DNA of 63,309 bases, the filler included, from Octopus bimaculoides (lineage: Eukaryota): the NCBI RefSeq assembly GCF_001194135.2. It is 5 parts of 5 records of this genome, joined end to end, with 100 filler letters (N's around TTAATTAATTAA, not from the genome) between each part and the next. Parts side by side here need not be neighbours in the genome. Positions count along the whole stretch, not along the records: positions 24,158 to 38,958 come from NC_068999.1; positions 39,059 to 49,352 come from NC_069005.1; positions 49,453 to 63,309 come from NC_068982.1; 2 more parts are not named here. One strand, given 5' to 3'. The number at the start of each line of letters is the position of its first letter. Position 1 is the first letter of the stretch. The translations under genes were made by a program, and so were the position numbers. A model generated the notes under the pieces. The model had not been told where the DNA came from, did not search any database, and saw only the letters and a list, made by a program, of their open reading frames with translations. This document shows positions 26,278 to 63,259 of this stretch, one piece after another.

Positions 26278-26359
26278 GGTATTTCAATATTTTAGGTTTA
26301 AGACCCCTCCTCAGGAAATTACTAGAGAAGGGGTCTTGACTATGAAATATTGAAATACC
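26278..26359. ncRNA. 82-nt palindrome made of two head-to-head damaged minimal hammerhead motifs
   Basis: Minus strand: ATTTC CTGAGGA GGGGTCTTAAACCT AAAA TATT GAAAT. Plus strand: ATTA CTAGAGAA GGGGTCTTGACTAT GAAA TATT GAAAT. Confidence 0.55.
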
Positions 26360-27645
26360 AGGTAAAATAATATAGTTAAAAACATTTAAATACATCAGAC
26401 AATGCTTCATGAAAACTGTACAACTCTATGATAGTGTACATCAAATTAAAAAAATATTGTAATGTATATTATATAATGTACTTTACAGTATCTTTACGAC
26501 ATGATAAAATGTAATGAAAACATAAATATTTACACTATTTTTCCACAAGAATTTCTGGAAATTTTTAAATGAGTTGACAGTATTGAAAAGTGATTATCTA
26601 TACATTGATTACAGTAGACTGCTTCCACTTACAAAACCAGTAACAGTAGATGAACTGAAGATGGTGATTGAACGAGGAATCGCATGAAGAGCAAAAGGAA
26701 TGGTTCTTCAAGTTTTCCATCCCACTGTTTCGCGTTATCAGTAAATGTCTAGATCAGAACAGTCGTCAGTTTGAAAGCAGATGTTCATAAAATGATTAAA
26801 ATTCTGTTTGTAGATTCTATTAGCTTTTGAAAATGAAATAAATTTAAGAAACAGTTGGAAGTTATGTACATGGTATTGCCATAGGCCGTAATGGTGATGT
26901 TGGTGTTGATAACACCGATAGAAGATACCGTGTGTGTGTATGTGTGAGAGAGAGAGAGAGAAATAAAGAGATAGATGAATAGATAGATAGATTGATAGAT
27001 AGATAGATAGATAGATAGAGAGGAGATTGGGATGTGAGCAGAGACAAAGTGTGATTTGGAAATAGTGGAAACACATTAAATAAACACGTTAGATAAAGAA
27101 AAAGAGACAGAAAGTATGACCAGGTATTCTAAGATGGAAGAGGAGGAGGAGGAGAGTAAGTTACAATAAACAAGTGAAAGAGTGGGAGAAAATTGGGAGA
27201 TTTGAATTTGAAGATGGAAGGTGACATAAAGAATTTGAAGATGTAGCAAAGTGTTTGATGTCACTTTATCTTTAGTTATCGCAGTGACATAATTAATCCT
27301 CTCTTTAATTAATTAATTAATTAATCCTCTCTTTGAGTTGATTTGAAGTGTTTGTGAAGTGTATTAATGCAGTCTCATCTAAAAATATTTTTTTCATTAC
27401 ATAACGGAAAAATGCTTGCAGCTTCCCTATAAGTATAGTAATGTTTGCATGTGTATACACACACACATACACACAGACACATAGACACACACGCACAAAC
27501 ACAGACACAGACACATATTTGCATGCATGTATGTGTAACTAAGTATAAATCCATATTTAAAGAGTATGCGAGTGTCAGTGAGTAACTACGGATGGAGTCA
27601 TGTCAAAATTCTTGCTACATTAGCAGATAAATTGTTTGGCATTCT

Positions 27646-27695
<50 letters not shown>

Positions 27696-28944
27696 GACAT
27701 ATACATACACATCCACACACACACAAACACACTCACACGTAGATGTAGCTATGTATATATGTATGTATCTATCTATATACACGTACCTACATACACTCAT
27801 ACACACACATACACACACATGCACACATGTTCATTTAGTGTTTTTCCTGGTTACTGGATTGTGTTATGTCGGGGAACAACCTCCAAAGTTTTTCACCCAA
27901 TAAGAATTATTTTTGATCTTGGTACCTATTTTATCAATGATTATTTATCGAGCCGCCATTTTAATATACACGAACAACATCACCGGTTTGAAGATTTTGC
28001 AAATGAAATTCCTTTGATCACAAGTCTGTTCCATCAGGGTTGAACTGATGCTAATTTATATAATCAACCTTAAGTAGATGAAAAGCAAAAAATCGATATC
28101 TGAATACACTAATTTGTTTACTTCTTCCCGTCTCCCTTTCGGCTGTCATTATTGATCACATATCTTTTTATGTTTACTAAACAACACCACTCCCATATAG
28201 TATTACGTCAAGTGTGTAGCTAATCTTGACATAGCCTTAACCTATTGATAAAACTTTTTTTTTTTATCGAAGGAGTAAATAGAATCTCTTTATGTGTGTT
28301 TGTCTGTCTCTTTCTCCCATTGTATGTCTTTGGTTCTTCTTTTCTTTCTTGGATCATGCGATGGATTAAGTTTTAATATGCAGCACTACCGCAATTTGAT
28401 ACAGCGGAGACATTTCTCTTCATGAGATATACTTTGGATCTTGTAAAGAGTAAAAATGAAAAGACAACAAAGAGATAAATTAGAAATATATTATTTCGGT
28501 AGAAAATCTGCATTATCAGTAAGCTGTGGCATAACCGTCTATAACCTGAAATATCAACGTGATAATGAAGAAGACTGAACAGTAAAGCTTGTAAAAATAT
28601 GAAATGACGAAAGTTAATACGTTTGTTACAGAGTACAAGTTCATATGTAAGAGATATGAGCGATTAGTTATTCAATTGTTGGTTGATGTACAAAATGTTT
28701 ATTGTTTCAAGCATTCAACTAGATATGATCGGTTAAAAAGTCGGCAAAAAGGAAACACTTTTGTTGATGTAGCAATGTATAAATATTAAAACACTATGTA
28801 TGTGTAAGGAAACCAGCAAAAATTAGGACTAATGGATTTAACAAGAGATTGTGGCTCTATGTTATAATGAAAAAGAAAAACCAAAACAAAAACAAAACTA
28901 CCCGAATTATTTGCTGATAGGTACATTATTAGTCTAGGATAGCT

Positions 28945-28979
28945 TAGGTTGAAAAGAGACCAATGTCGAAACGTTGCTT
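28945..28979 (+). ncRNA. Degenerate minimal hammerhead-like motif (U3-A8 core)
   Basis: TTGAAAA GA GAC-CAAT-GTC GAAA CGTT; stem I is poorly paired. Confidence 0.35.
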
Positions 28980-29499
28980 GTCCCAAACTTCCCTTATGTT
29001 AATGAATGTAGTATGTTGTGAGGATATATAAATATCTTTATTAGAGAATTTATTTATCACATCAGATCTCCAGGCTAAAGCTAAACATTGGTGCCATCAA
29101 GTAGTCGCTAAATCAAAACACACAAATATCATTGTTAGATTCCTTTCAAGCACAAAGCAAAACAAAATACGAAGAGACACGAGGGTATACTTCCTTTTAT
29201 ACAATGATGTTTCTGTGTATTCATGATTTTGTTTAGACTGCGAGAGACATACAAATCTTGAGTGATTCTAATCGCTTGAGCATTTGAGGTTGCGAGTGCC
29301 TCCTACAAAATGTTTAATGATGTTCCTTCTGACTCTTTATGCACTGAGTTCAAATGCTGCCGAAATCAACATTGCCTTTCGTTACTTCAGGTTCCATAAA
29401 ATACACAGAAAAGGAGCAGTCAGGTATTGGAGTCGAGGTACTTGAATAGCCCTTCCCTCACATATACATATACACGTATGTATGTATAAATATATATAT

Positions 29500-29556
<57 letters not shown>

Positions 29557-31629
29557 NNNNNNNNNNNNNNNNNNNNNNNNNNNNNNNNNNNNNNNNNNNN
29601 NNNNNNNNNNNNNNNNNNNNNNNNNNNNNNNNNNNNNNNNNNNNNNNNNNNNNNNNNNNNNNNNNNNNNNNNNNNNNNNNNNNNNNNNNNNNNNNNNNNN
29701 NNNNNNNNNNNNNNNNNNNNNNNNNNNNNNNNNNNNNNNNNNNNNNNNNNNNNNNNNNNNNNNNNNNNNNNNNNNNNNNNNNNNNNNNNNNNNNNNNNNN
29801 NNNNNNNNNNNNNNNNNNNNNNNNNNNNNNGTGTATGTGTGTGTGTGTTTGTGAGTGTGTGAATGTGTGTGTTTGTGAGTGTGTGTGTTTTATACCTTAA
29901 GGTCAATATGACAAAAAAACATATGAAAAAAATACCAAAAATTGTAAATAAATATTCGATACGTGCTAGACATGTCAACATCGGTAATTAAGAAATTTGA
30001 TTTCAAGTACTACGATTTTCAAAATGTTACATTTCACTTAAATTATCGGAAGCGTATGAAGTTGGTGACATTTGACTTTCAGTCTCCACGAAAGTCAAAA
30101 AAATTTATTATTTTTCTAAAAGTAGATTCTCAGGAAGTTGGCCTTGTACAATTTACAATGTTCCACAAAAAAAAAAAGAAAAAGAAAAAAATTCTTCTTT
30201 GTATCAGGTTTTTAATGACAATTTAAAATCGAAAACATTTCAAAACAATATTATATTTATTTATATATATTTGTGTGTGTCTGTCAGAATGCATGTATTG
30301 GTTTTGATTTACTGTTAGGTGACTATTAGCCAATACGGTATATNNNNNNNNNNNNNNNNNNNNNNNNNNNNNNNNNNNNNNNNNNNNNNNNNNNNNNNNN
30401 NNNNNNNNNNNNNNNNNNNNNNNNNNNNNNNNNNNNNNNNNNNNNNNNNNNNNNNNNNNNNNNNNNNNNNNNNNNNNNNNNNNNNNNNNNNNNNNNNNNN
30501 NNNNNNNNNNNNNNNNNNNNNNNNNNNNNNNNNNNNNNNNNNNNNNNNNNNNNNNNNNNNNNNNNNNNNNNNNNNNNNNNNNNNNNNNNNNNNNNNNNNN
30601 NNNNNNNNNNNNNNNNNNNNNNNNNNNNNNNNNNNNNNNNNNNNNNNNNNNNNNNNNNNNNNNNNNNNNNNNNNNNNNNNNNNNNNNNNNNNNNNNNNNN
30701 NNNNNNNNNNNNNNNNNNNNNNNNNNNNNNNNNNNNNNNNNNNNNNNNNNNNNNNNNNNNNNNNNNNNNNNNNNNNNNNNNNNNNNNNNNNNNNNNNNNN
30801 NNNNNNNNNNNNNNNNNNNNNNNNNNNNNNNNNNNNNNNNNNNNNNNNNNNNNNNNNNNNNNNNNNNNNNNNNNNNNNNNNNNNNNNNNNNNNNNNNNNN
30901 NNNNNNNNNNNNNNNNNNNNNNNNNNNNNNNNNNNNNNNNNNNNNNNNNNNNNNNNNNNNNNNNNNNNTATATATATACGCATATATGTATATATTTAAT
31001 AAGTGTATACAAAGTATATATGTTTGTGTGTGCGTGTGTTTCTCTGTGTGTGTGTGTGTATATGTATATGTATACGCACACACAACCCATAATCATTTCC
31101 TGGACTCAGCCAATTGCCTGCAGTTATTCAGAAGTATTGGCTTGAATGATTTTGCTTGCTCATATCTATTCTGAGACTTATTTTAAAGTCTGGTGCGTAA
31201 CATAGCGATTATTATCAGTGGTTGCGCCACTAAATTACGTACATAAACAAAAATGAAGGATTTTTTTTTGCCATGTGATATGAAACATATTGAATATGGT
31301 ATCGAACGATATCAAATGAATTGAAGACAGACATATAAATAGACGTTTACTGATTTCCGACAGATGCGATAAAATAAGTACTTAGATTTCAATCACATAC
31401 AAACAGACACACCTACACACTCATGCAAACACATACATACCTACTACTAGCTCCCGCAAAGTTTTCGTTGATGCATTTCACTCTCAGATTTTTTGCGACT
31501 TAGCAGAAGACACTGGTTAAATGTACCCACGCGTCGGGGTTCAATCCGAGAGCATACAGTGGCGAAGCGACCTCTTACTTGCACAGCAATATACATACAT
31601 AGATACGTATATACATACATATGTATACA

Positions 31630-31800
31630 CACTATTGGGGCACTGGTATATGTAACACACTGCCTAAATGCCAAGCTTGAGAAATTAGGCTTCTTAAAGC
31701 TAGAAAAGAGAAAGCTGATTCGAAGTCTACAGACCCTGGCCATCGTTGGAACTGTGAAAATCTGGAAAACTTTCCAGAAGTTTATCATTTAAGTATATAT
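31630..31800 (+). mobile_element. 3' end fragment of the RLE LINE subfamily seen at 21510-21995
   Basis: IGALVYVTHCLNAKLEKLGFLKLEKRKLIRSLQTLAIVGTVKIWKTFQKFII* aligns with 21830-21990. Confidence 0.85.
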
Positions 31801-32459
31801 GAGTATGTCTAGACATACAACAGTATGCATGTGATTAAAAGATATCTCATAAAAATACAGGGACAATTTTTATCTTTCAAATCTACAGCACTCCAAAAGA
31901 TGTATAAATGATTACGGGGCAAACAAAGAAAAGAAAAAGGGTGGACGGACGACTCCTCTTTGAAGTGTCGGCATTTTCGACTTGAGTTTTTTTTTTTTCT
32001 TGAAGGAAGAAATGACTATTTTATTTGTAATCTTTATCACCTTAATGAAATGGCAGGAAAACAGACATTAATTTGAATTTTAGTATAATATAGATGGGAA
32101 GACGTAGTTTGTAGCATGACTGATCTCTACGGAACGGGTATTTATTTAACAAAACATTTCGTTCGATCTTTAGGTTGCTTTCTCCGAGAATCAGAAAAGC
32201 GAGTAAGCGCAAGTAAAGTCGGAATTATTTTGTATAAGTTTTGCGAATTTGATGAGAAGGAAACTGATCTGTTTGACAATGGCATTTATAACGGTATTAT
32301 ATAAATTGGCTTCGCTGCCTTTTCGCTTTCATTTCTGTCAAAATCTGTCTACGAGGTGGTAATTATGAAATATCGTTTCCTTCGTCTTTTGTTCTCTATA
32401 TCACTTCAAAATGAAAGCGGCCAGGCAAATAACTCTGTTGTAACATAGATGATAATCCG

Positions 32460-32669
32460 TATATTTCTCGCGCCTTCTCTTTCTATCTCTCCCTGTCTCT
32501 CTCTCTGTCTCTCTTTCTCTGTCTGTCTCTCTCTGTCTGTCTCTCTCTGTCTGTCTCTCTCTGTCTCTCTCTCTCTCCCTCTCTCTCATGCTCTCTCGCT
32601 AACAACAACAACAACAACAAGAACTACAGCAACTACAAAAACATCGAAATAAAAACAACAACACTGAAG

Positions 32670-32718
<49 letters not shown>

Positions 32719-33129
32719 GAAGAAGAAGAAGAAGAAACGGAAGAAACAAGTAGAAGAAAAGGAAGAAGAAATGGAAAAAGCAAGAAGAAAAAGAAAAAAA
32801 GCAAGAAGTAGAACAGAAGAAAAAGAAGAAGAAACAAGAAATAAGAAGAATAATAAGAATGAGAAGGAAAAAAAGAAGAGGAAGTAACAGAAAAAGCAAG
32901 AAGATAAAGAAGAAACGAAGTTTAATNNNNNNNNNNAAGAAGAAGAAGTAAAACAAGAAGAAACAAGATGAGGAATGTCTGGGGAAGAGGAGAAATACAT
33001 GAAACAAAGAAGGAAGAGAAAGAAGAGGAAGAATTGGAGGGAGAAGAATTAGGATGAAGGAAGAGTATGAAATAACGAAGAGCAACAACAGATGAACAGC
33101 ATCAGTATGAGTAAAAGTGGCATCATCAT

Positions 33130-33170
<41 letters not shown>

Positions 33171-33300
33171 GCGATTCAGCCACCACCAGCACCACCGACA
33201 ACAACACCAGCACCTCATCAGCACCACTACCGCCACTAACATTAAAGCCTCCACCACCACCAACAACAACAATTACAACCACAACAACAAAAACGATACT
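32460..33300. repeat. Compound simple-repeat block: (CT)n, (AAC)n, (AAT)n, AAG-rich, (CAT)n(CAG)n, (CAC/AAC)n
   Basis: Read directly from the sequence; source of the poly-amino-acid ORFs. Confidence 0.9.
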
Positions 33301-33551
33301 GAGTAATTATTTGTAAAATCTGAATAAAGAGAGACAATCCAATCAACAAATTGTATCATTTTCGATAAACAAACGGAATTGAAACTGCAAACATGGCTGA
33401 ACAACAAAGCTGGCGACGAAGACTGATAGAAAACAAAATTCTGAGATAATTTTGTTCGCGTCGTTTTTTCCATTCATTCAACATAACAATTGCCTTACAA
33501 AATGTATCATTATGATAATAACAACAACATTAAAATAATAACCACCATCAA

Positions 33552-33629
<78 letters not shown>

Positions 33630-33834
33630 CATTATTATTATTATTATCATTTACATTCTCCNNNNNNNNNNTCATTAGTATTCAAAAAAATCAAAAATTT
33701 ACAACCAAAAAAAAAAAAGAATTGCAAAAAAAAAACACATCCTTTTCTGGAACGAAGAAGACTATCAATCTGTTAGTAATATTATCATCATCATCATCAT
33801 CGTCATCATCATCGTTATCATCATCATCACCCCA

Positions 33835-34210
33835 AGGCACATATAGAACGACTTTACCTGCCAAGAAAATCGGGTGGCCGTGGACTTTTACAACTGGAAC
33901 TAAATTTGCCACAGTTGGGCTAAACATCTATCTGAAAAACTCTGAGAACTGGATGTTAAAACTTATCTTAAAGCATGAAAATAGAAAAGCATCATACTCA
34001 GTAACAAAACAGGCAAAGAAATATCTAAGTGAATTCCAAATACAAGAAATCCCTGAATTAGTCTTACTGGAAACAAGCACAGAAAAAGCTAAGCGTATGA
34101 AAACCCGTGCTAAAACTGATGCCTTAGATATTCTGACTGATAAATGACAAGAAAAACCTCTCAATGGCAAATACCCAAAGAGAGCTAATATGCCAATGTT
34201 GACAAAGCCC
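33835..34210 (+). mobile_element. R4/Dong-like LINE post-RT region fragment
   Basis: RLYLPAKKIGGRGLLQLELN, then WMLKLILKHE...KQAKKYL...QEKPLNGKYPKRAN, which overlaps the peptide starting the 20695 fragment. Confidence 0.75.
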
Positions 34211-35114
34211 AAAGTGTTAGTTTAGGGTGCTGTTTAGAACTCCTCCAACNNNNNNNNNNNNNNNNNNNNNNNNNNNNNNNNNNNNNNNNNNNNNNNNNNN
34301 NNNNNNNNNNNNNNNNNNNNNNNNNNNNNNNNNNNNNNNNNNNNNNNNNNNNNNNNNNNNNNNNNNNNNNNNNNNNNNNNNNNNNNNNNNNNNNNNNNNN
34401 NNNNNNNNNNNNNNNNNNNNNNNNNNNNNNNNNNNNNNNNNNNNNNNNNNNNNNNNNNNNNNNNNNNNNNNNNNNNNNNNNNNNNNNNNNNNNNNNNNNN
34501 NNNNNNNNNNNNNNNNNNNNNNNNNNNNNNNNNNNNNNNNNNNNNNNNNNNNNNNNNNNNNNNNNNNNNNNNNNNNNNNNNNNNNNNNNNNNNNNNNNNN
34601 NNNNNNNNNNNNNNNNNNNNNNNNNNNNNNNNNNNNNNNNNNNNNNNNNNNNNNNNNNNNNNNNNNNNNNNNNNNNNNNNNNNNNNNNNNNNNNNNNNNN
34701 NNNNNNNNNNNNNNNNNNNNNNNNNNNNNNNNNNNNNNNNNNNNNNNNNNNNNNNNNNNNNNNNNNNNNNNNNNNNNNNNNNNNNNNNNNNNNNNNNNNN
34801 NNNNNNNNNNNNNNNNNNNNNNNNNNNNNNNNNNNNNNNNNNNNNNNNNNNNNNNNNNNNNNNNNNNNNNNNNNNNNNNNNNNNNNNNNNNNNNNNNNNN
34901 NNNNNNNNNNNNNNNNNNNNNNNNNNNNNNNNNNNNNNNNNNNNNNNNNNNNNNNNNNNNNNNNNNNNNNNNNNNNNNNNNNNNNNNNNNNNNNNNNNNN
35001 NNNNNNNNNNNNNNNNNNNNNNNNNNNNNNNNNNNNNNNNNNNNNNNNNNNNNNNNNNNNNNNNNNNNNNNNNNNNNNNNNNNNNNNNNNNNNNNNNNNN
35101 NNNNNNNNNNNNNN

Positions 35115-35160
<46 letters not shown>

Positions 35161-36938
35161 TACCATTATCGAGAAGTTGAAACTGTTTAGTCATAGATCA
35201 CTAACTAAAATGCATGCCTAATGATCAAGGGTAGTGTAACCGAAGCATATGAAGGAAATTAATTGTTAGTAGCGATGAGGTGCCGTGGTTTGATGGATGT
35301 GTGGGTCTGTAGTCTCTTTCACTCTCTCTTTGCCTCTCTTGCAATATGACTAATACAAATAGGAGCTCCTCTTAGGGACACCTTAATCTCCTATTTATCT
35401 GTGCATATTACTTCAAAATGTGATAACTACAAAATGAGGCATGTTTACGTTTTTGGAGGATGAGAATAACAAACATAAAAATAAAAAAAAGCAGTGGTAC
35501 GGCAGTAACGTGAAAGCGGTATGTGCGAAACATTTCATTCATTCTGTTTTCAAATTTTGTTACTGCTGTCTTTACATTTCATTTCTCCGGGGAATGATAT
35601 ACAGATTATGTATTGTGAGCAGTTCAGTCGATTACACTAGTTCATTTGTTCCAATGTAATAGATCGTTCTAATTAATATTGAAACAAGCAACGTATATAG
35701 CGGAGGAGATTATCAACTTTGTGATGATCGAGTTTTCCAGACTAGTTTGTTGCTGGTGCTGTCGATAGTTTAATGAATTTTATTTTAGCTGACACTATTT
35801 TGGGAAGAACTGTTGCGTTATGAAACAATTATTTGGCTATAATTTACTTTACATTTGAAGCCTGAAATACAAGAACTTTCTCGAATATTAATCAAGTTTG
35901 TCGAGGCAATGTTTGTACAGTTGCAAGTTAGGAGAAAGTTAGAAGATTGATAAAAGAAAGTTAACAGCAGAAAGAGCTATGGAGAAATTAACAATGACTG
36001 CATGCTTCCTATTATTTCGTATTTATCCGTATACGTCTAGCTGCAAATAATTTGTTTTTGTAATTACTCTAACAGTTTTACGTTGTTGTAACAAGCTTTA
36101 CTGTCTGGAGTTATCAACTAGACATTTTAGAAGGACAATCCGTTACAGGCAAAGACTGGTTATAACCTACCACAATCGCATTCAACTATTATGTTCCGTT
36201 ATCATCTTGAAGCGCTCATTATTGTCCTTGTATCTCACATCAGCGTTCGTTACGCAGGTCAACAAGAAAGCATTTCAGCGATCGCTCTACGTGGTGTACG
36301 ATAGATTTCTCTGTTACTCTCTTAAAATATTAAGAGCAGGTCTGTAAGTAAACATTCAATTGATCATTGAACATAGGTGTTTTCTGGGCGGGAGTCACCC
36401 AGGCTTAAACAAAAACTATTGGTCAGTGTATTCAACTGGTATTATATTTTATCGGCAACTGAAAGGTTAAGGCGAATTCCAAGGACATCATGCTCGATAA
36501 TGACTTGTCCAACAATGAACAACTTCTGAATGCAGTTTGACTTCAACGAAACATTCCCTTCACTGCTACAGTTGGAATAATTTACTCAAGGTACAGCGCA
36601 GTGGAATTGAACCTAAAAACACATGGCTATTACAAAGCGAGCTTTTTAACCACACATCTATCTATCTATCTATCTATATATATGTATAATTAACATAATA
36701 TGGTAAAAATTCGATATTAATTAATATCAATTTAATACCAGGAAACTAGCACATTAAAAGATTATAGTACTTGTGTATATAAGATTGACCAGTGACCGGT
36801 CTGTCAAAATGCTAGAAGAAGCTCACTTAAGTGAGCTTATGTATATATGTATATATATATATATTTACATATACACACACATTCATATGTGTATATGTAT
36901 ATCTATATATCTATCTATCTACCTAACTACCTAACTAC

Positions 36939-36975
<37 letters not shown>

Positions 36976-36985
36976 NNNNNNNNNN

Positions 36986-37021
<36 letters not shown>

Positions 37022-37256
37022 GTTCTTTTCAGGCAGTAATTTCCACACTGCCACTTGCGTGAAATTCTATATTCCTTCTATTTTCTTTTTTTTTATATTG
37101 TTCTTATATATATTCTCTTTCTGTAATTCTTTATTATGTCATCATTCTCTAAACATTCAGACGTACATACATACACACGTACATACATGCATACATACAC
37201 ACACGTACATACATACATACATATATATATATATGTCTATATATACACACACACTT

Positions 37257-37311
<55 letters not shown>

Positions 37312-38200
37312 TACATATACATACATANNNNNNNNNNNNNNNNNNNNNNNNNNNNNNNNNNNNNNNNNNNNNNNNNNNNNNNNNNNNNNNNNNNNNNNNN
37401 NNNNNNNNNNNNNNNNNNNNNNNNNNNNNNNNNNNNNNNNNNNNNNNNNNNNNNNNNNNNNNNNNNNNNNNNNNNNNNNNNNNNNNNNNNNNNNNNNNNN
37501 NNNNNNNNNNNNNNNNNNNNNNNNNNNNNNNNNNNNNNNNNNNNNNNNNNNNNNNNNNNNNNNNNNNNNNNNNNNNNNNNNNNNNNNNNNNNNNNNNNNN
37601 NNNNNNNNNNNNNNNNNNNNNNNNNNNNNNNNNNNNNNNNNNNNNNNNNNNNNNNNNNNNNNNNNNNNNNNNNNNNNNNNNNNNNNNNNNNNNNNNNNNN
37701 NNNNNNNNNNNNNNNNNNNNNNNNNNNNNNNNNNNNNNNNNNNNNNNNNNNNNNNNNNNNNNNNNNNNNNNNNNNNNNNNNNNNNNNNNNNNNNNNNNNN
37801 NNNNNNNNNNNNNNNNNNNNNNNNNNNNNNNNNNNNNNNNNNNNNNNNNNNNNNNNNNNNNNNNNNNNNNNNNNNNNNNNNNNNNNNNNNNNNNNNNNNN
37901 NNNNNNNNNNNNNNNNNNNNNNNNNNNNNNNNNNNNNNNNNNNNNNNNNNNNNNNNNNNNNNNNNNNNNNNNNNNNNNNNNNNNNNNNNNNNNNNNNNNN
38001 NNNNNNNNNNNNNNNNNNNNNNNNNNNNNNNNNNNNNNNNNNNNNNNNNNNNNNNNNNNNNNNNNNNNNNNNNNNNNNNNNNNNNNNNNNTAAAATTAAC
38101 GTCAACCGGATTTGAAATTTGAATGTAAGGAACGGTCGGAAGAAATACCACCACAAGTAATTTTTTCCGACGCTCTCATGGCTCTGGCAGTTAACTGTAC

Positions 38201-38257
<57 letters not shown>

Positions 38258-38264
38258 GTAATAA

Positions 38265-38815
38265 GCCGGCTATCTCCGTTGCTTTTCATTCTCTGCATGA
38301 TAGCCCTGACTCTGGTACTCAGGAAAATGAAGCTGCGGTACCAACTAAAGGAACATTCTCAAACAATCAACCACCTCCTCTTCATGGATGATTTGAAACT
38401 GTATGGCAAAGATGAGGCCAAAGTGAGTTCCTTGGTGAACACGGTCCACTATTTTAGTAATGATTTTAGAATGGAATTTGGACTCAAGATGTTCAGAGTA
38501 ATCTACCTAAAAAGAGACAAGGTACAGTCCCTGGCAGGGATAGAATTACCGAATTATGCAAATTGAAATGGAAGGATACAAATACATAGGTGTAACGTGA
38601 TAATGAAAGAGCAGCTGAGGATGGAGTATTTCCGAAGACTGAGGTTGGTGTTGCGCTCAAAATTGACTGGATGGAATAAAATCCAAGCTATTAATACGTG
38701 GAGGACAACATCACTTCGGTACAGAGCGGGAATTATAAAATAGCAAATCAGAGAAATGAAGAAAACGGATACCAAGACCAGAAATATGTTGACACTACAC
38801 GGAGAGTGACTCCGA
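38265..38815 (+). mobile_element. R4/Dong-like LINE RT core fragment
   Basis: SPLLFILCMIALT...INHLLFMDDLKLYGKDEAKV...EFGLK, then YKYIG, RLRLVLRSKL, KIQAINTW; preceded directly by (AAT)n. Confidence 0.88.
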
Positions 38816-38958
38816 TAGGCTGTAGTTTTCCAGAAGAAAGGGTGGGGTTTCAACTCATTAATAAGTGAATATTTCATGCCATCCTTTATGTACATTAGCT
38901 GACTTATGTATGTACACACAAAAATATGTATATGAGTCTACACACACACACACACACA

Positions 38959-39058
38959 NNNNNNNNNNNNNNNNNNNNNNNNNNNNNNNNNNNNNNNNNN
39001 NNTTAATTAATTAANNNNNNNNNNNNNNNNNNNNNNNNNNNNNNNNNNNNNNNNNNNN
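38959..39058. other. Assembly linker 44N-TTAATTAATTAA-44N
   Basis: Same 100-bp layout. Confidence 0.95.
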
Positions 39059-52700: not shown

Positions 52701-53884
52701 TGAAACTTCGCAGACAAAATTTGGAGGGTGTAGTTTGCGATTATGTCGACAATATTTTTTAAAGGTATTTTGAATCATTCCCCCTTCATCCCGACAGTGT
52801 TATGCCCCACTTGTTTTTTTCATTCCATTATATTGGATTTCTTTTCTTTGTGTTAAAATAAATCAATTAAAAAAATTTTTTTTTGTGTTTTTAAATTCGA
52901 TTGTTAAAACAATTTCTGTATCGTCACGCGCAATTTCCTTTCCGATCTGTTCGATTAACCACTGTAGATTTTTCCCCATTAACTTCCTAATTTCAACTGG
53001 ATGCACACGCGTTATATCATGTATTCCCAAAAAGAATGGAAGGGAGAGTACAGAGACTAAGCATGTCGATAGGTGGGGAACGAGGACTGAGAATCGTGTG
53101 ATATTTTCATTGTAAAGGAAGGCAACATGGAGGGAGACCAGTGAACAGCAATAAAATACAGTAAATCGGTAACGGACAATGAAAACGAATGAAGAACATC
53201 AGATTTATAGTATAGAGTTAATTTTTTTTTTTAACTCAATAATAGAAATCTAAGATGAACGGGAGAGGGTATATTTAAAACTGAATCCCATTTTTAAAAC
53301 ATTTGAATAAAACTAAAAAAAAAGAAAAAAAACCGGAAAAGAATTGCGCTGACTTTCACCTTTAATAATCGAAAAAAATGATAGACTATTTAATTTATTC
53401 GATGTTCAGATGTATATAGAGAAATGTTCGCTTAAAGAAAAGGGAAACAGTAGTTTTGGACTATAATTAGTGTCGTATTAATGAAGAAAATTTTCCTATT
53501 TTCTTGGTGGAAGATGAACCACGAGGTAGAGAAAACGAAGAGACGGGTTGAAGGAAAATTCTATTTAAAAAAAAAAACGACAGAATAATATATAGAGATA
53601 AGTGTTGGTCACAACAATTTCGATACTAACAGAAATATTTCCATGAATTATTCATTTGCTAAAATATAATTCAGAGAAATAATAGGAAGGAAAAAGTGGA
53701 GAGTGAGCGCCTGGCTGGCTAACATCACCATAATGGCTAACGTGGTTGATCAAGGCTTTTTTGATACACGGAAATTTCACAGACGATATAATGATAATTT
53801 GTGAAGAAGGAAAAGTAAAATATAGAGGTCATAGAAGGATAATTGAAGAGAAGTAAAATCTAATAGCGATCGTTTTACTCTTAC

Positions 53885-53935
53885 CTGTCTTGCTCGGGCG
53901 ACAGCATCAGCAAAAGCTGACTGAGTGGGTTCCAT
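53885..53935 (-). CDS. FUBP: Coding exon 1 of a far upstream element-binding protein (FUBP1/KHSRP/Psi family) homolog
   Basis: ATG in strong context (aaagcATGG) with an in-frame TAA two codons upstream. Encodes MEPTQSAFADAVARARQ followed by CAG|gtaaga (phase 0). Matches the family N-terminal box AFADA.QRARQ-IAAK; as I recall, vertebrate FUBP1 exon 1 also ends at RARQ. Confidence 0.85.
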
Positions 53936-54014
53936 GCTTTAAACACTGAGAATACTTCTCCTCCGCTTATACAATGGCGACTGGTCTGAGCGAAGGAGAC
54001 GGCGAATGTGGGTT

Positions 54015-54055
<41 letters not shown>

Positions 54056-54260
54056 TTTATTTTTTTTTACCCCTTACTCAACGAGAAATTTGCAAAAAAA
54101 AAAACAAGGAGGGCAAAAAAATTGGTCTTTGTTCTGTTCCGATATATTTGCTTTTTTCTATTAATATATCTCTTCTGTTCCGTGAGTAAAGAAGAGAGGA
54201 ACAGAGACCATCCAAATACGTCTGACTGACTGCTGCTGGCCAACTGATAGCGGCGACCTG
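53936..54260 (-). promoter_or_regulatory. Putative core promoter and 5' UTR of the FUBP-like gene
   Basis: Inr-like TCAGTC at 54229-54224, a CpG-enriched patch, YY1-like AATGGCG at 53973-53979, an A36 run (54052-54017) and a 16-aa uORF (54211-54161). The TSS is inferred, not observed. Confidence 0.45.
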
Positions 54261-56393
54261 TCGCTCTCTCTACATCTTCTACTCATACCACTACTCCCTC
54301 AATATGGCTGATCTGCTACCACTATGTTTTATTCATGCTTGTAGTGATGACGGGAACTAGCCGACACGACCATCACTCCTATAACCAATTACAACAAACT
54401 ATTGCACTGGCGTTATTTTTACTTTATGTACAGTCGTTGCTATTTTGTTGCCAGTGCAGCTGCTCTGAATAAAACTTTTCTTAATCGATCATCTCCTTAC
54501 CATTTTATTCGTCATGTAATAATTATCAGTCATCAAACTACTACTACTTTCTGAAACATCACTCCATATGGCGACATATATATTTCTCCCCCAGTAATTC
54601 TTCATTATATTTGTTTTAATTCCATTTTATCTTCAAAATAAGCTACATAAGGGGGGTTTTTTCTGTATAAAATTTTGTCTCCCTTCCTACTATTTCCCTA
54701 TATCATCTCTTACATTGCATTTTGCTTTACAGCGCTTAAAGCTCTCTGACCTTGGAGTTATTTTCTTCCCCAAAAGTCATTTATTATGTAGACTGTAGTA
54801 AACTTCAATTTAGAACCATTGCTATTTAGACAAAAACTAAATTTCCATTTTTTTTTTACTTCTTAATGGCTAGTACGCCGTTATTAAAATCATTATTATT
54901 ACTATAAATAAATCATTGTGTACATTTGTTGAGTTTCTTTGTGAGGAAGAAATAGGTCGCATGATACTTCAGACGTCACTGCTTACAGCTACTTGTAGAC
55001 CTCATTAAACATGTTTTCAGTGTTTCGTGAATTAGGTGATTACCTCTAAATAAACTTCTGGAAAAAAATTAAAAATCTATTTCCTCTACAGACACTTCAC
55101 TACACTAAGTAAATGGAATTTTATTAATGTAAAAAGTATCTAATATTTACATAATTTGATGCCATGGCGTAGTAGGAAATAAACAACATGGCAGCTTATT
55201 TAAGCCATAAAGACAGCTACTTTTGCGTACACACACGAACATATATATATATATATATTGTGTGTGTGTACACACGAATTTTATCAGTTTTAAACTCAAG
55301 TTTCGATATATAGTATATTAATTGTATATGGGGAATAATTGACAATTTAATATGGTAAAGTTAACATTAATGGAGTAAAATACAAAAATGAAATATTTTT
55401 CGAACGTATATAAAATACTAAACATGATCAGAGAGAAGGAAGAAATATTTAGAATTTGACCACTTTCTTCGTTTATTATGTACATAATCGTTTCTTTATT
55501 CATGATTATAATGCGAACAATTTAATCTGGTTGGACCACTAATGTGAATGACGTAAAATGCATCGTTAGGTCTATGTGGGAGACATTATACTCGTTCTAA
55601 AACTGTTCTACGAAGAAATTGTTGCAGTTCTAGCAAATTATTTTGTTTATCTTAATAGAGAATATAGACACTCATGCTACATAACTTTTTTGAGTTAGCT
55701 TATTGCATTTAATGTTAGATATAAACCGTTTTTCACTAGTGATATGACGAAAATGCCATTTTCTGTGTATTCCTATCAACTTTTTTTTAAAATATAAATA
55801 TTACTTTACACTTTAATTATTCAACCTCAAATATACTGTAGGAATGTCTTTCTAGATTCTTTTAATAGAAGGAAAAATGCTTCGCTAAAATGGTCCTACA
55901 AGACTACAGCAGATAAAACACGCATTGATTAGTGGGTGTGAGATAGACATTAGTACCCTTACAAAAAACAAATGCTGAAGCAACCCCTGGTCAATCCTCA
56001 TTGAGCAGACATTTTATGTGTTATAGTGCTTACAAAAACATATTCGTGCCTTCAAAAATGTTTCCACGTGTCAAAATTAACATCCCTGCCTCAACAGATA
56101 ATTGTGAATGATTCAATCCATTTAAAATTTCAGCAAGTGCATCGTTATCAAATAGCATATTAAACATTATGTCGACTAAGTTTATACATTACAATCGAGC
56201 CAGCACGGGAGTCTGTCGATCCACAAAATGTAGTAGCGAAATTCCCCCAAATCACATCTACTGCCTTAAAACAAGAACGAATTAGTAAAATTTAGTCCTA
56301 TGAGTATGCATGTGTATTTCTGTAAACGAGACTTTAAAACCGGAGTGCTTTGATTATAAAGCCTGCTCAATCAGAGCTGTTTTTAGTCTAAAA

Positions 56394-56642
56394 CAGCGGT
56401 TCTTAACCATTTTTTACCTATGGATTCCCTTGATGCCTATTTTGTTCTTGGACTCCCATAGCCATTCGATGTTTTAAAAAATCCTATTATATTTTTATAT
56501 TCAAATATTATTAGGAATCGTATTAAAAAATTGTTAAAATATTAATGTATTGTTGAAGTATACTCTATTTATTGCACATAATTGTTAACAAAATCTTACG
56601 TGGACCATCAAGGGTCATATGAACCCTGATTGAGAACCGCTG
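56394..56642. mobile_element. hAT-superfamily MITE
   Basis: TIRs cagcggttcttaa ... ttgagaaccgctg; 8-bp TSD gtctaaaa / gtctaaac (7 of 8 match). Confidence 0.9.
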
Positions 56643-56680
56643 GTCTAAACAATACACGCACGCACCATCTCTCTCTCTCT

Positions 56681-56712
<32 letters not shown>

Positions 56713-57414
56713 CCTACAGAATATGAAACTAATTACATATACAGAGTTGATTCGCATATTCTGCACCCAAAGAAAACAATCTTTCATATAATACACATTG
56801 GGGCAAGAAGAATCTTGATCAGTTGTCTTGAAGCAATTTCTCTTTCAAACTATCATTAAAGATTCCCATGCAGAATACTTGTGGGAGCTTACGTATTCAT
56901 ACAATATTAATTCAATATCTGTAACAGTGGCAACTTGAAACCTAACTGCAAGATACTTGAGCAGACACCACTAGCGAACCACCATAGTTTCACATGACCA
57001 GTCTTTGAATCAACCAATCTGTGAAGCTATGGCATGATATGGTTTTCTCAACTGTTCATGAATAAAACCTCTAATCCTCTGTAAAAATCCATTTGGTGTG
57101 TAGCTTAGAGTGCAGACACCTAATGCACCTCTGTTGCCATGGAGATTTGCACAGATGACTTTGTATATTTTTGGACCATATGTTGTCACACAGGTCGCCT
57201 TCTATAATTTCAGAGTAGTTTTTCTCTCTCCCAGTTGGCAGTCATTGATATTGTTCGTTGTAAATAGCCAACACCAAATTTCCTTATGTCCTGCAATAAA
57301 TATTCAGTAAAAAAAATTACAAGTTTGCTTCTGTTATTTTTCACACAGCCAACAAAATATATTTTCATTGACCAGCCCAACTTGAATGATGGCAAGCAAC
57401 CAGTGATCCTCTTT

Positions 57415-57830
57415 TACCTTTTATCTTTTTCTTGTTTCAGTCATTAGACTGTGGCAGTGCTGGAGTACATCTTGAAGAATTTTAGTTGAATGAATAAACC
57501 TCAGTCGTAATTTTCTTAAAGCCTGCTACTTATTCCATTGGTCTCTTTTGCCAAACTGCAAAGTTATGGGACATAAGCACACCTACACCAGTTGTCAAAC
57601 AGTGGCGGGGGACAAACACACACATACACATGCACACACGCACACACATGCGTGCACACAAGTACACACGCACATGACAGGCTTCTTTCAGTTTCCATCA
57701 ATCAAATCCACTTACAAGGCTTTAGTTCATGCTATAGTAGAAGACAATTGCTCAAGGTGACATGCAGTGGCACTGGACCCAGAACCATTTCATTGGAAAA
57801 CAATCTTCTTACCATACAGCCACTCCTGCA
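57415..57830 (-). mobile_element. SINE family A, diverged full-length copy
   Basis: Tail tcttgtttcagtcattagactgtggc, internal CA-rich run, head ...gcagtggcactggacccagaacc...cttaccatacagccactcctgcacct. Confidence 0.75.
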
Positions 57831-58722
57831 CCTCTATTTGCAGAAGTTTGGAATGGATGATGAGCAACATGATCAAAATGAAGGTATTTGTTAAAGTATC
57901 TGAATCTGAATCTCATTCATGAAAATGGGCTGTAGTCAGTCAATATTTTGAAATTTGGTTTCTAGGACTTCACCATTATATAAGCACTAGCTACAATAAC
58001 TATTACTTTATGTTTTTGGGGGGAGGAAGGTTCAGTCTTGCATTTTGTAGAAGGAACATAAGAGGTTGTTTCCTAAGAACATTAGCAACCAAAAGGAAAC
58101 AGTTCCATAATGATGATGATGACATTAATAACAACAGCAATACTTCAACACTATTGAGATTCCTTTTCAGTTGATATAAAACAGATTTGTCAAAGCTGTT
58201 AACAATAAAAAGTAGGTTTTATCATTGAAACTGTTAGTTAAGTGTGTATACAATAATGAAAGAAGGAATTGTAAGACTACTCAGTTCAACAGACATGTGT
58301 AACTACCTAACTGTAGATATTCTTCTATCCATACATTCATGCGTCCCAACTGTTAGATCCTACATCAAAGAATTTTAGCCAGTTCTCTCTCTTTAGTACT
58401 CAGAAAGACTCCTCTAAAGTTTTCTCTTTATCTACATCTTTACAGCAGAGTTATGCACAAATCCTCTCAGTCCCAATCAATCATAGAGTATAGCCTGAAA
58501 ATTCATGGGTACTACCTCTTCTCCTCTGACTAACAAATGAAAGCACTCAAGAACTAAAGAGATATGTTGTAGGAGAAAAACAAAGAGAATGTTGAGTGTT
58601 TTCAGGAAAATTAAAGGCACAGGTTGGCTGTGTGGTAAGAAGCTTGCTTTCCAACCATATGACCTTGGGCTGACCAAAGCCTTGTAAATGGATATAGTTT
58701 ATAGAAACTGAAAGAAGCCTGT

Positions 58723-58770
<48 letters not shown>

Positions 58771-58864
58771 GGTGCGTGACTTAGTGGTTTATTCGAAATC
58801 AAGATAAACAAAGTTCATTTNNNNNNNNNNTGCGTGACTTAGTGGTTTATTCGAAATCAAGATA

Positions 58865-59500
58865 AACAAAGTTCATTTTTAATCTAAAATATACTCTCCC
58901 TCATTTTCTACAATGCTCTTCTATCTATCTGGTAGACTTGCAAGGCTCTTCTTCCAAAATTCATTTGTCTGTGATGAAAAATATTCCTCCAGTACTGTTG
59001 TGACCTCATCTACAGAATTCATGTTTTTTCTGTTCAAATGATTTTGAAGACTATGGAATAAATAATAATCAGATGGGGCAATGTCCGGCAAACATGGTGG
59101 GTGGGGCATCGTTTCCCATTCAAACTGTTCCACCCATTGGAATGTCATCCTTGTTGTATGTGTCCAAGCATTATCCTGATGGAAGAACCCCTTTCATCTT
59201 GAAACCAAAGGTGGTTGTTTTTCTTCTAGCACTGACTTAATCTGCTCAAGCTGCTGGCTGTAGATTTTCTTTGTTATCGTTTGGTTTGGGTTTAAAAGTT
59301 CAAAGAGGACTAAACCTTTCATATCTCATCAAACAGATACCATCACCTTATGTGGGTGAAAAACTTCTTTAGCCTGGGGTGCCAGTGTTTCTCCTTTCCC
59401 TACCCACTGTCTTCAGTGCTTCACATTTTTATAGAGAACCCATTTCTCGTCACCAGTCACTATTCAGTCCAAAAATGGTTCCTTCGTGAGATGTGGCAGT
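58865..59500 (-). mobile_element. mariner transposase pseudogene, same family as 45803-46140
   Basis: EPFLD*IVTGDEKWVLYKNV...HKVMVSV...ILHQDNA...MPHPPCLPDIAPSDYYLFHSLQN...SLASLPDR*KSIVENEGEYILD. Confidence 0.9.
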
Positions 59501-59689
59501 ATCATTATTATAATATATATATATATATAAATTCAACTTATGATAAAAAACAAACAAACAAAGTTTGTTTTAGAAGCGTTGAGATGTATTGAAAGAGAGA
59601 AATAATTTTTTTTTTAATTCTTAAATGATAATGCTAATAAATAGCGTGATCAGGATAAATTATCCATACATTGCAGAAAATATGTTACC

Positions 59690-59762
59690 GGCCAGCCATG
59701 AGACTCAAACTCACATCCCTGTGATTACGCGCTAAGTGCTTTACCATTAAGCTAAACTGCCC
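59690..59762 (-). pseudogene. tRNA-derived sequence (Thr-CGT-like pseudo-tRNA or SINE head)
   Basis: 73 nt GGGCAGTTTAGCTTAATGGTAAAGC...GTGAG-TTTGAGT-CTCAT-GGCTGGCC; acceptor, D and T arms partly pair, the anticodon stem is broken and the T loop is mutated. Confidence 0.5.
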
Positions 59763-59859
59763 AGTAACAAATTCTGCATCTGGGGCACACCTATCCAAAC
59801 TGACAAGGTGGTCAAAACAAATCAACCAGGTATAATTATTAAGGACTGGGACAAAAATT

Positions 59860-60120
59860 TCTGCAGCCTGATGCATATCTCCACCCTTTCTGACTAAAAT
59901 ATCACTTCAGAAGAGGTGGAGAAACTATCAAAATACAAATATCTTGAAGCTTAAATAAGAAGGATATGGGTTTGAAAGTGAAAATAGTATCAATAATAGA
60001 TGGAGCACGAGATATAAAAAGAAATATGAATGAATAGAAACATAAAAATCTTTCCAGAGCACACAATTTTACACAGTTAAAATGTAGTCCTGCTTGGCAC
60101 AGCCTCCATCCTTCATGAGA
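59860..60120 (+). mobile_element. Highly decayed RLE LINE C-terminus
   Basis: EVEKLSKYKYLEA*IRRIW..KVKIVSIIDGA...VLLGTASILHET. Confidence 0.6.
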
Positions 60121-61700
60121 CATTTTCAATTTAATTGTGTAATTTAAGCAGTATGCACACTGTACAGAACATATACTCTCTACAATCACCACCAAAAAAC
60201 ATTAAAAAAATAGCACAATTCATGCAATCATGCACAACAGATTTCTCTAAGCAATCAAACCAGTATCACTATATTATTTATAATAATGCAACTCACATCC
60301 TGATATAATCAGCACTGTGTGTATCCCAATTTTAGAATAGATACACCACATCACTGCATGTCATAAGAAGTGACTAAAATGGTTCACATCAGGAATATAT
60401 TCAGTATAAAACATTGTTGCAGTAAAACTGTCCGACGCATGCTAGTCCAGAAATAATGTAAAATAATAATAATAATGATACTCTAACACAAAGGCCATTA
60501 TAACACTGACAATTCAAACAATTGACACTGTAACACCCACCAACACCATCTATTTCAATATTACCAACAACTTGTACAACATACACTCAACAAAGCTATC
60601 ACTCAAGAATGTAACATAACTCACGCTCTGCCGTACTCTGCACAATTTTAATCTGAAACTAAAACACACAACACTAGTCATACAGTACATACAAAACACA
60701 AATACCAACCAATATAATAAACGACTCACATTGTACATGCTCCACACAACAGACAAGACATTAAAATAACATCAGAAATAACAAAATAAATCTCACAAAA
60801 AAGTAAAAAACTGATAATGTTTTTAAACAAAATATAACATCCCCCAAAAAGATAATAATGTACATACCTCTGAAATATAATAGTGCACCTGATAGTGGAA
60901 TAGAACCTTGCATAAAACACATGATAAATAAAATAATGAAATTGCAATTATTAAAAGCAATGTGAATATTAAAATGGTGTATCAGAGATAAAAGAAAATT
61001 TGTATGGAATGCATTGTAACCACACTAGTAGTTGTAATTGTCTTCTGGAGGCAAGAGTCTTTGGCATATTGTCTTGTAAAAGAGAAAGGAAATAATCACA
61101 TAGAATTTTTTAAGAATAATAGTAAGTTTTTAAAAAAATTAAAGCCATAATAGCAGTAACAATAAGATTCAAGATATTAATAACAAATATAATTGGAATC
61201 TATTCATTAAGTTTGAAATGAGTATATCTCTTTCATCCTAATGAAATGAAAAACTGCAAGTTGCATACAATTTAATGTCACATCTAGTTATTAACTGATA
61301 TCATTTTCTTCCATTTTGAAGTTGGAATATCTTGTTGAATATTTTCTATTTCTTTAATGTTTACAGTTCAGTTGCTAGCTGCCTCATTACCCACTGTTCT
61401 CAGTCGATTTACTTCATTCTTGCAAAGTCTGGAGCTCAATAAGATATGTCAGAGACTTTGATAACAACAATGTAAAAACCAAAAAAGGTAAAATAACAAA
61501 ATGAAATTAAATCAAATAAAGCAACTTCTTCAACAGCTTTCATTCAAAAAATGATAAACGATAAAAAGAAACTTCTAAGAGTTTTAATTGAGCTAATAAC
61601 TGTATAAATAAACAAGTAAATACATATAATTCCGATGACATTTTCAGATTGGTTCAGGAGAATACATCATTATAATCACCACCAACATCAGCAATGTCAT

Positions 61701-61746
61701 CAACAACGTTTCGGCTGATATACCCTCCAGCCTTCATCAGGCGTCT
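61701..61746 (-). ncRNA. Minimal hammerhead-like motif in the Penelope 3' region
   Basis: gacgc CTGATGA A GGCTG-GAGGGTATAT-CAGCC GAAA CGTT gttg: intact core, 5-bp stem II, ACGU palindromic stem III, eroded stem I. Confidence 0.7.
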
Positions 61747-61795
61747 TGGGAAAATTTCGAACCTGGGTTCTCATTCCTAAGGTGTTTTTCGATCA

Positions 61796-61868
61796 GGTCA
61801 CTGCCTGGAATCGAACTAGGAATCTTGGGGTTAGTAGCCCGTGCTCTTAACCACTATGCTATATGCCC
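61796..61868 (-). pseudogene. tRNA-like Pol III promoter segment within the Penelope 3' region
   Basis: 73 nt with A box TAGCATAGTGG, B box GTTCGATTCC and T arm CCTAG/CCAGG; the acceptor stem pairs only partly. Confidence 0.6.
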
Positions 61869-61897
61869 GTTGGCAATTATGGAGTGAATTTTAGGGC

Positions 61898-62905
61898 TTA
61901 TAAATCTAATATTCTCCTATCCTTCCTTAATACCAGTTCCCGTATGCTGTTCATATCTGCACTCGGTCTGCTTAGAAGGTTCTTGTGTCCTACCATATGT
62001 GCTGCTTCTTTTAGTTTTTGTATTTTCCAGTGGTGTTCTCTGTCTATTATTTTAGCTTCATTCCACAGGGGGAAGTGGTCTCCATTTTTCCATACATGAT
62101 CAGCTATGCCCGATTTATCAATATCTCCCCATGTCACAGCTTTGCGATATTCCTTTACCCTTATTTTGAGGGGGCGACATGTTTTGCCTTTGTATAACCT
62201 ACCACAGCTGCATAGGATGAAGTACACGCAGTTCTCAGTCATATTCTCTTCTATTGGTGGTTTTACTCGAAGGAGATATTTGCGAAGTGTTGTATTACTC
62301 TTGAATACTGTCCTGATGTCATATGGGCCGCATATCTTTTGTATCTTTTTGGAGAGGCCTTTAAGATAGAGTAGACAGACTGTGGACAGTTTATTGGTTT
62401 CATCCTCTCATTTCTTCCTAATTGGAGTGGAGAGTATGCTTTTGGGATAGTTGTTGCTTAATAGATTGTTACTGAGCTTGATCATTTTTTCATGGTAGGT
62501 ATTATGATCGCTACTTATATTCTTTGCATGATGTTTTAGGCACTGAGCAATCCTACTCTTTACACTGTATGGATGGTGGGAGTTGAAGTTGAAATATCGT
62601 CCAGTGAAGGTTGGCTTACGGTATACGGATGTCCTGAATCCATACTTGGTGCATGTTATTAATACGTCCAGGAATGCTAGCTGAGTGTCTTTTTCTTTTT
62701 CCATTGTGAACTGTATGGATGGCTTTATTGAGTTCACATGATCTAACAGCACTTGGACATCTTCCTGGTGGGGCCAGAGCACGAAGGTGTCATCAGCATA
62801 TCGCAGCCATAGGGTTGGTTTTATTGGTGTTGATCCTAAAGCCAAATTCTCTTGAATCATCGATAGTGCTTTACAAGTTGGGACTTTGGTGAACAGACTT
62901 ACCAC
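61898..62905 (-). mobile_element. Penelope-like retroelement (RT plus GIY-YIG endonuclease), 5'-truncated and frameshifted
   Basis: VSLDVVSLFTKVP...WLRYADDTF...FTMEKE...LAFLDVLI...YRKPTFTGRYFNFNSHHP; then VYFILCSCGRLYKGKTCRPLKIRVKEY...SGIADHVW...REHHWKIQKLKEA. Confidence 0.93.
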
Positions 62906-63259
62906 ATCTAGACTCACCATTTGGTTGGATTCAATGGGGGGTATCCTTGATCAATTCTGTGATCAAGGACACTTGGGAAAAAAAAAAATAAGAGTTGGCA
63001 ACAAGAATAAGCATAATTATCATCATCATCTTTTTAAGATCCACTTTTCTATGGGTTGGATGAAGTTTATTGAAACAGATTTACTTGTCAGATGTCTTTC
63101 CTGTTACCAGCCCTCGCCTGTTTCCAAGCAAGGTAATATTTTCACATTGGAAATTAATGTCACTGCTAATAAGTCAGTGATACTTATTTTAGAATTATCA
63201 TGCGATGTCAAGGCAAGGAGACACAAACATATACACTAACACACACACACATACTTAAA

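Follow-up and report, generated by a model that had tools for sequence, protein, structure and literature searches.

The window analysed here is a stretch of 63,309 nucleotides (nt) from Octopus bimaculoides, AT-rich, microsatellite-rich and animal-like in character, with 7,537 N and 55,772 non-N bases. An earlier note on it had listed five hammerhead-like motifs, which we label by position as L1 (26.3 kb), L2 (28.9 kb), L3 (40.2 kb), L4 (49.5 kb) and L5 (61.7 kb). All five are present at the coordinates claimed for them, and a sixth motif, L6, lies at 40749-40800. We conclude with considerable confidence that the five belong to the published minimal type I hammerhead ribozyme (min-HHR) class of Penelope-like element (PLE) ends, and that L1 to L4 are likely left-over 3' ends of other Penelope families, mostly decayed. 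L5 is assigned to a PLE because it stands directly behind a frame encoding a reverse transcriptase (RT) and an endonuclease. The features concerned, including an open reading frame (ORF) and a transfer RNA (tRNA)-like segment, are as follows.

26281..26319, minus strand: L1, min-HHR remnant; C3-G8 core, one extra nt, stem III AUAU, stem I 5 bp, stem II 4 bp (G.U closing), A at position 12, AUU site (N17 = 26286)
26322..26359, plus strand: inverted twin of L1, 5'-truncated; GAAA kept, CUGA missing
28945..28979, plus strand: L2, the weakest remnant; U3-A8 core, two extra nt, stem II 3 bp, stem III ACGU, GUU site (N17 = 28975), G-G opposition in place of the first stem I pair
40204..40240, minus strand: L3, min-HHR remnant; C3-G8 core, two extra nt, stem II of 2 uninterrupted bp, stem III AUGU, GUU site (N17 = 40208), stem I 4 bp
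40749..40800, minus strand: L6, type I hammerhead; stem I 5 bp and stem II 5 bp, both perfect, one extra nt, stem III of A15.1-U16.1 plus 3 pairs with a CCGG-containing loop, GUC site (N17 = 40754)
49456..49711, no strand: head-to-head inverted repeat, 256 bp, 91%, containing L4 and a second motif copy
49541..49577, minus strand: L4, intact min-HHR; U3-A8 core, one extra nt, stem II 5 bp, stem I 3 bp, stem III AAUU, UUU site (N17 = 49544)
61701..61746, minus strand: L5, min-HHR belonging to a Penelope/Poseidon-like element, in its 3' terminal repeat; C3-G8 core, one extra nt, stem II 6-7 bp, stem III ACGU, GUU site (N17 = 61705)
61794..61870, minus strand: tRNA-like segment separating the ORF stop from L5; contains motifs resembling A and B boxes
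61898..62950, minus strand: Penelope-like ORF, 5'-truncated and broken; C-terminal part of an RT (YADD), then a GIY-YIG-type endonuclease region

Architecture of the hammerhead motifs

The earlier note had described the five motifs by a formula in which stem II follows CUGANRA directly, with GAAA and unbroken stems. Taken literally, this formula matches none of the five with G12, because one or two unpaired bases separate A9 from stem II in every motif, and one of the five if A12 is allowed. It was replaced by a descriptor permitting the extra nucleotide of the published class, which between positions 9 and 10.1 amounts to one in L1, L4, L5 and L6 and two in L2 and L3. With position 17 left free, a loose form of this descriptor finds exactly five loci, whereas 300 local dinucleotide shuffles average 0.36 and never reach five; the descriptor was written after the loci had been seen, which makes its P value optimistic. 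The enrichment over dinucleotide-shuffled sequence that the earlier note expected is thus borne out within the window. When matches of equal quality were counted for each locus, at levels fixed only after each had been inspected, L1, L4 and L5 had none in the 300 shuffles, L3 had one and L2 had 44. The bare core is frequent (13 in the window against a shuffle mean of 6.9), and among the five window copies only L4 folds more stably than its own shuffles.

The catalytic core, CUGANGA (or its U3-A8 form) followed by GAAA and UH, is intact in four of the five, the exception being L1 with its A12; substitution of G12 abolishes catalysis, and GUU is among the active NUH sites (PMC3138052). The closing pair 10.1-11.1 is G-C in four and G.U in L1. 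As claimed, the A15.1-N-N-U16.1 segment is self-complementary throughout (AUAU in L1, ACGU in L2 and L5, AAUU in L4, and AUGU in L3 by way of G.U), and position 17 is U in each of the five. The assertion that stems I and II keep pairing was too general: uninterrupted stem I and stem II pairs number 5 and 4 in L1, 0 and 3 in L2, 4 and 2 in L3, 3 and 5 in L4, and 2 and 6 in L5. With the A12 of L1 counted as well, L4 is intact and L5 nearly so, L1 and L3 are damaged and L2 is doubtful. Nor can five unrelated single copies, among which self-BLAST finds no similarity, show the covariation that had been ascribed to them.

L6, absent from the earlier list, is better formed than the five that were on it, and has C at position 17; matches of its level occurred in 2 of 200 shuffles. 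It may be active as a monomer. Its inclusion brings the density, put earlier at about one motif per 13 kb, to six motifs in the 55,772 non-N bases. Further descriptor matches at 17133, 26710, 44418, 51132, 54473 and 56124 were dropped; they are without stem I, palindrome or G12 and need loose settings to surface, at which shuffles average about 1-3.

Two of the motifs are members of fold-backs. L1 and its inverted twin form a head-to-head fold-back at 26278-26359 with a hairpin z score of -7.75, in which position 12 is A in L1 and G in the twin. L4 lies in an inverted repeat whose arms each extend about 85 bp beyond the motif; the second copy has its core from 49594 on the plus strand and a 2-nt deletion in the GAAA/stem III segment. 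In a read-through transcript, both L1 and L4 would, on folding grounds, be buried in hairpins. The head-to-head arrangement is the commonest for Penelope (PMC3846280), and opposite-strand pairs of min-HHRs have been reported (PMC4209133). For L2, neither a twin nor a nearby PLE frame was found in the window searches. Further long local inverted repeats, possibly miniature inverted-repeat transposable elements, occur at 9393-9619, 9668-9868, 11002-11158 and 11349-11504 and contain no hammerhead core.

The Penelope reading frame beside L5 and its relatives

L5 starts about 150 bp beyond the stop of the RT and endonuclease frame, in which a single in-frame stop occurs at 62408-62410. Searched with its RT part, 348 candidates yielded 88 relatives at E <= 1e-3, mostly carrying PF00078 and PF26215, with PF01541 in 3 of the 88; by tblastn the frame is 66% identical to one of them, P0011, across 315 amino acids. 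Its C-terminal part aligns with the endonuclease region of the relatives, and this alignment together with the three PF01541 homologues is the basis of the GIY-YIG label. Among 15 chosen window frames, Pfam gave the L5 frame only a sub-threshold RT match (E 0.0056) and nothing for the endonuclease part. The layout, an RT followed by a C-terminal endonuclease, is that of Penelope/Poseidon. Just upstream of the truncated element, 63072-63145 is a piece of another high-copy repeat, with a depth peak and loose ends at 63091-63141.

A metagenome scan with eight aligned relatives of this protein gave 79 loci; the relatives whose flanks were covered match the L5 protein at about 30-60%, the closest proteins being 60-74% identical. 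In 17 of the 36 loci with an ORF end and sufficient room, several of them near-duplicates, a strict hammerhead lies just 3' of the ORF; the opposite strand has none in 36, and shuffles average 0.02. The distinct loop-less motifs among them all have exactly one extra nucleotide (16/16), and 14 of the 16 have ACGU in stem III; position 17 is C in 12, U in two and A in two. Thirteen of the 17 distinct motifs were aligned, omitting three near-copies of one family and one motif with a looped stem III. Two-sided changes occur at all four stem I pairs of this alignment, and selection of the motifs had required pairing of stem II, not of stem I. A covariance model built from the 13 foreign motifs places L5 (E 6e-4) at the head of its 13 window matches, followed by L3 (E 0.011). 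One foreign locus (L011) has a min-HHR in each terminal repeat, the two being identical and 2.8 kb apart (189-237 and 2980-3028), a textbook full-length layout.

The L5 family, its tRNA-like segment and other repeats

Reads of two DNA runs (two organisms) and two RNA runs were placed on 61000-63200 at 80% likeness; among the six motifs, the abundance figures cover the L5 family only. The family is very abundant, with a 3'-biased gradient: summed contig depth (X1), which is no copy number, is 0.05M near 62850, reaches 0.9M where the ORF ends and amounts to 2.3-3.4M across 61666-61887, whereas the flank has 0-100. A family size of the order of tens of thousands is likely. The window copy departs from its family at 61703, leaving only 2 pairs of stem I; the family continues for at least 30 nt past this point, and its 3' letters beyond 61703 would form a 5-bp stem I with the L5 5' strand. 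This extension fits the tail of 30-40 bp that Penelope elements optionally carry (PMC8557442, PMC3846280). Fold-back joints connect 61741-61793 with 61853-61870, as expected for inverted pseudo-long terminal repeats (pseudo-LTRs).

In the RNA runs, mate directions are about equal and 74-81% of placed reads continue into unlike sequence, which suggests that the L5-family RNA reads reflect passive co-transcription. A second class of loose ends falls at 61709 (449 reads against the 1,553 that run past 61703 in X21, and 341 against 1,262 in X22). The consensus of these loose ends suggests, for 61705-61709, an abundant branch of the family that has lost 3 nt of stem III, in which no ribozyme would be possible.

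Upstream of L5, the segment at 61794-61870 scores 18.8 bits against the Rfam tRNA model, under the cut-off of 29, and ARAGORN detected no tRNA in it. Depth of the L5 family rises 2.3-2.5-fold exactly at its start, and in many copies an (AAT)n run is joined at 61793. One tentative reading, which we hold to be doubtful though not negligible, is that a putative tRNA-derived promoter of RNA polymerase III (Pol III) type heads the L5 terminal repeat, with the hammerhead following about 50 nt downstream, and that the unit of tRNA head, (AAT)n and hammerhead is an abundant element resembling a short interspersed element (SINE), mobilised by Penelope and with a ribozyme-dead side branch, the one that has lost part of stem III. 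If this were true, it would be a case of a SINE in partnership with a Penelope element, and its live and dead branches would offer a natural test of the ribozyme's role in spread. The depth step can also be explained as duplication of the pseudo-LTR, given the fold-back joints at 61853-61870. No description of a tRNA-headed Penelope repeat was found in the literature covered, which lay outside subscription papers and Repbase. Another tRNA-like sequence, at 59690-59761 on the minus strand, scores 28.5 bits with the Rfam tRNA model, just below the cut-off, and is loosely like the 61.8 kb segment.

The window holds many other repeats, and repeat finding in it is dominated by N runs and microsatellites. 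One SINE-like repeat, roughly 200 bp long and running up to CA microsatellites, is dispersed in many copies (6148-6342, 17913-18150, 22153-22400, 43806-44042, 57409-57660 and others); a second dispersed family occurs at 5981-6147, 18290-18449 and 57672-57837, and a third at 21188-21306, 25982-26149, 29334-29403 and 39192-39328. RT fragments of the type found in long interspersed elements (LINEs; Pfam RVT_1) lie at 3753-4487 (+) and 38195-38566 (+), with LINE C-terminal pieces, recognized by eye, at 21602-21937, 31472-31792 and 39442-39720. Finally, 45857-46130 and 58859-59132 are two copies of a transposase-like fragment, 87% identical, which looks mariner-like by its motifs, Pfam giving no such match.

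Interpretation and comparison with known systems

The published account of the min-HHR (Cervera & de la Pena 2014, PMC4209133) defines it by the lack of a helix III loop, a palindromic 15.2-16.2 segment, G10.1-C11.1 and a nucleotide separating position 9 from 10.1, recognizes a U3-A8 variant, and finds mostly single copies of many heterogeneous families per genome. In vitro, a Schistosoma min-HHR was not cleaved as a monomer, and dimers and trimers cleaved weakly (PMC4209133). According to a review (PMC6765202), dimers in tandem transcripts are the likely active form of PLE hammerheads. Applied to the elements of the window, each pseudo-LTR would carry one hammerhead whose 4-nt palindromic stem III would not fold shut alone. 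Where a transcript is tandem or multimeric, the palindromes of two copies would pair with each other and the stem I strands would be exchanged, and the resulting double hammerhead would cut slowly after position 17, freeing or shaping element RNA. Reverse transcription, starting at the 3' end and usually stopping early, would fill the genome with lone or fold-back 3' ends carrying one motif apiece. Scattered single copies such as those of the window are predicted to be mostly inactive, because they lack a partner, because core or stem is damaged (L1, L2, L3) or because long hairpins enclose them (L1, L4).

For L1 to L4 and L6, we infer a Penelope origin from architecture and fold-backs. The earlier claim that several Penelope families carry minimal type I hammerheads stands as to unrelated families, with the Penelope link shown for L5 and inferential for the others. 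That its NUU-cleaving variant is distinct or undescribed is not supported by comparison with Fig. S3 of PMC4209133, which we tallied by hand from the PDF text, where the GAAA column is printed apart. The figure has 56 rows, 41 of them loop-less, with 20 U, 18 C, 2 A and 1 G at position 17; the U17 rows comprise 15 with ACGU, two with AUAU, one with AAUU (Crassostrea) and two with AGCU. All three stem III forms named in the earlier note thus occur there together with U17, and therefore its variant was already in print. Family 4 of S. mansoni agrees with L2 in its U3-A8 core, ACGU and U17.

Several observations weigh against the assignment of all five motifs to Penelope min-HHRs. Of the 179 window hits of Rfam (E <= 5), the best 150 include no hammerhead, nor did Rfam list one in 61600-62000. 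The foreign covariance model gives L1 only E 9.3 and does not list L2 or L4 at E <= 10; it holds no U3-A8 row. Neither tblastn with the 88 proteins nor a profile search of six-frame tiles found a PLE coding remnant near L1 to L4 or L6, with queries that were relatives of the L5 protein only, so that other PLE clades may escape. By nearest-neighbour estimates, the forced double-hammerhead fold falls 7-21 kcal/mol short of the stability of the computed dimer optimum in all five copies; this low stability would fit the decay of the window copies. In the two RNA runs (about 6% of each), no pile-up of read ends was seen at L5, though fragmented libraries might not show cleavage ends, and the 1,553 reads of X21 that run past 61703 cross the predicted cut uncut, their strand unresolved. 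Read data for L5 thus neither show nor exclude cleavage in vivo. The frequency of L2-quality matches among the shuffles also counts here, and for L2 alone a chance origin is plausible, if on balance unlikely.

Given that no PLE frame was found near L1 to L4, an alternative is that some of them belong to non-autonomous hammerhead elements, SINE-like or resembling non-LTR retrozymes, rather than to protein-coding Penelope ends. In support of this, the depth of the L5 family steps up at its tRNA-like head, and Pol III SINEs with hammerheads are known in Schistosoma (PMC6765202). However, animal non-LTR retrozymes carry canonical type I motifs in tandem repeats of about 300 bp (PMC7229834), whereas the window motifs are minimal and no such repeats (about 170-400 bp) surround any of them; lone min-HHRs from truncated PLEs are already the published norm (PMC4209133), and pseudo-LTR duplication can explain the depth step. 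We regard this alternative as unlikely.

Less probable still is that U17 marks a lineage-specific, selected variant, in which the A14-U17 six-base palindrome could nucleate dimers or damp cleavage, and on which the host Penelope families would have converged. All five loop-less window motifs do have U17 and a 6-nt self-complementary stretch, and the mollusc rows of Fig. S3 in PMC4209133 (Lottia, Crassostrea) are U17 in three of three, against two of 16 foreign relatives of the L5 protein. Yet U17 is the commonest state among the loop-less rows of that set (20/41), from cnidarians to fish; five of five would be expected about 3% of the time with no special cause, and oftener in an AT-rich genome; and the original descriptor required U17, though a free position 17 also yields five loci. 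Position 17 varies both among the relatives and within the window, where L6 has C17, so that U17 is not universal here. We take it for one of the normal, permitted states of the NUH site.

Chance matches in AT-rich, repeat-rich DNA are the most improbable account of the set: the commonness of the bare core, the unexceptional folding of all but L4 and the shuffle matches at the level of L2 favour it, but the levels of L1, L4 and L5 were never reached in 300 shuffles and that of L3 once (levels set per locus afterwards), and L5 has both its PLE context and independent model support.

We therefore retain the assignment of the motifs to Penelope min-HHRs. The motif class is already known, and one more animal genome joins a long list with thousands of such ribozymes; the tRNA-like head of the L5 terminal repeat is one loose end, outside what the earlier note had claimed. 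No paper on cephalopod PLE hammerheads was found in the literature covered, subscription papers lying outside it. The in vivo role of PLE hammerheads is still open (PMC4209133, PMC8557442), and the L5 family, being abundant, well represented in RNA-seq and apparently accompanied by a stem III-deleted branch, could be a convenient system in which to address it.

The closest known system is the min-HHR of PMC4209133, which shares with the window motifs the type I topology, a palindromic stem III lacking a loop, an additional nucleotide separating 9 from 10.1, G10.1-C11.1, a short stem I (broken at its first pair in L2), a C3-G8 or U3-A8 core, frequent U17, many unrelated families per genome, lone and opposite-strand copies and, for L5, a position 3' of an RT-endonuclease frame. 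It differs in that its Fig. S3 has no cephalopod row, L2 and L3 carry two extra nucleotides, and the L5 family has an upstream tRNA-like segment, of which we noticed no description there. The PLE variants of Lunse, Weinberg and Breaker, as summarised in PMC6765202, likewise combine a very short palindromic stem III with cleavage that depends on dimers. With the endonuclease-containing (EN+) PLEs of the Penelope/Poseidon type (Arkhipova 2013, PMC3846280; Craig 2021, PMC8557442), the window shares the RT followed by a C-terminal endonuclease, 5' truncation, head-to-head palindromes of inverted pseudo-LTRs, the optional 30-40 bp tail and a hammerhead near the 3' end; unlike them, L1 to L4 and L6 have no coding remnant, and the clade suggested by the layout of the L5 frame is a putative one. 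Finally, the hammerhead SINEs of Schistosoma (Sm alpha/Sj alpha; PMC6765202) place a Pol III-type promoter before a hammerhead, much as the tRNA-like segment precedes L5, but theirs are canonical hammerheads in non-coding tandem units, whereas here the unit is joined to a PLE frame and its motif is minimal.

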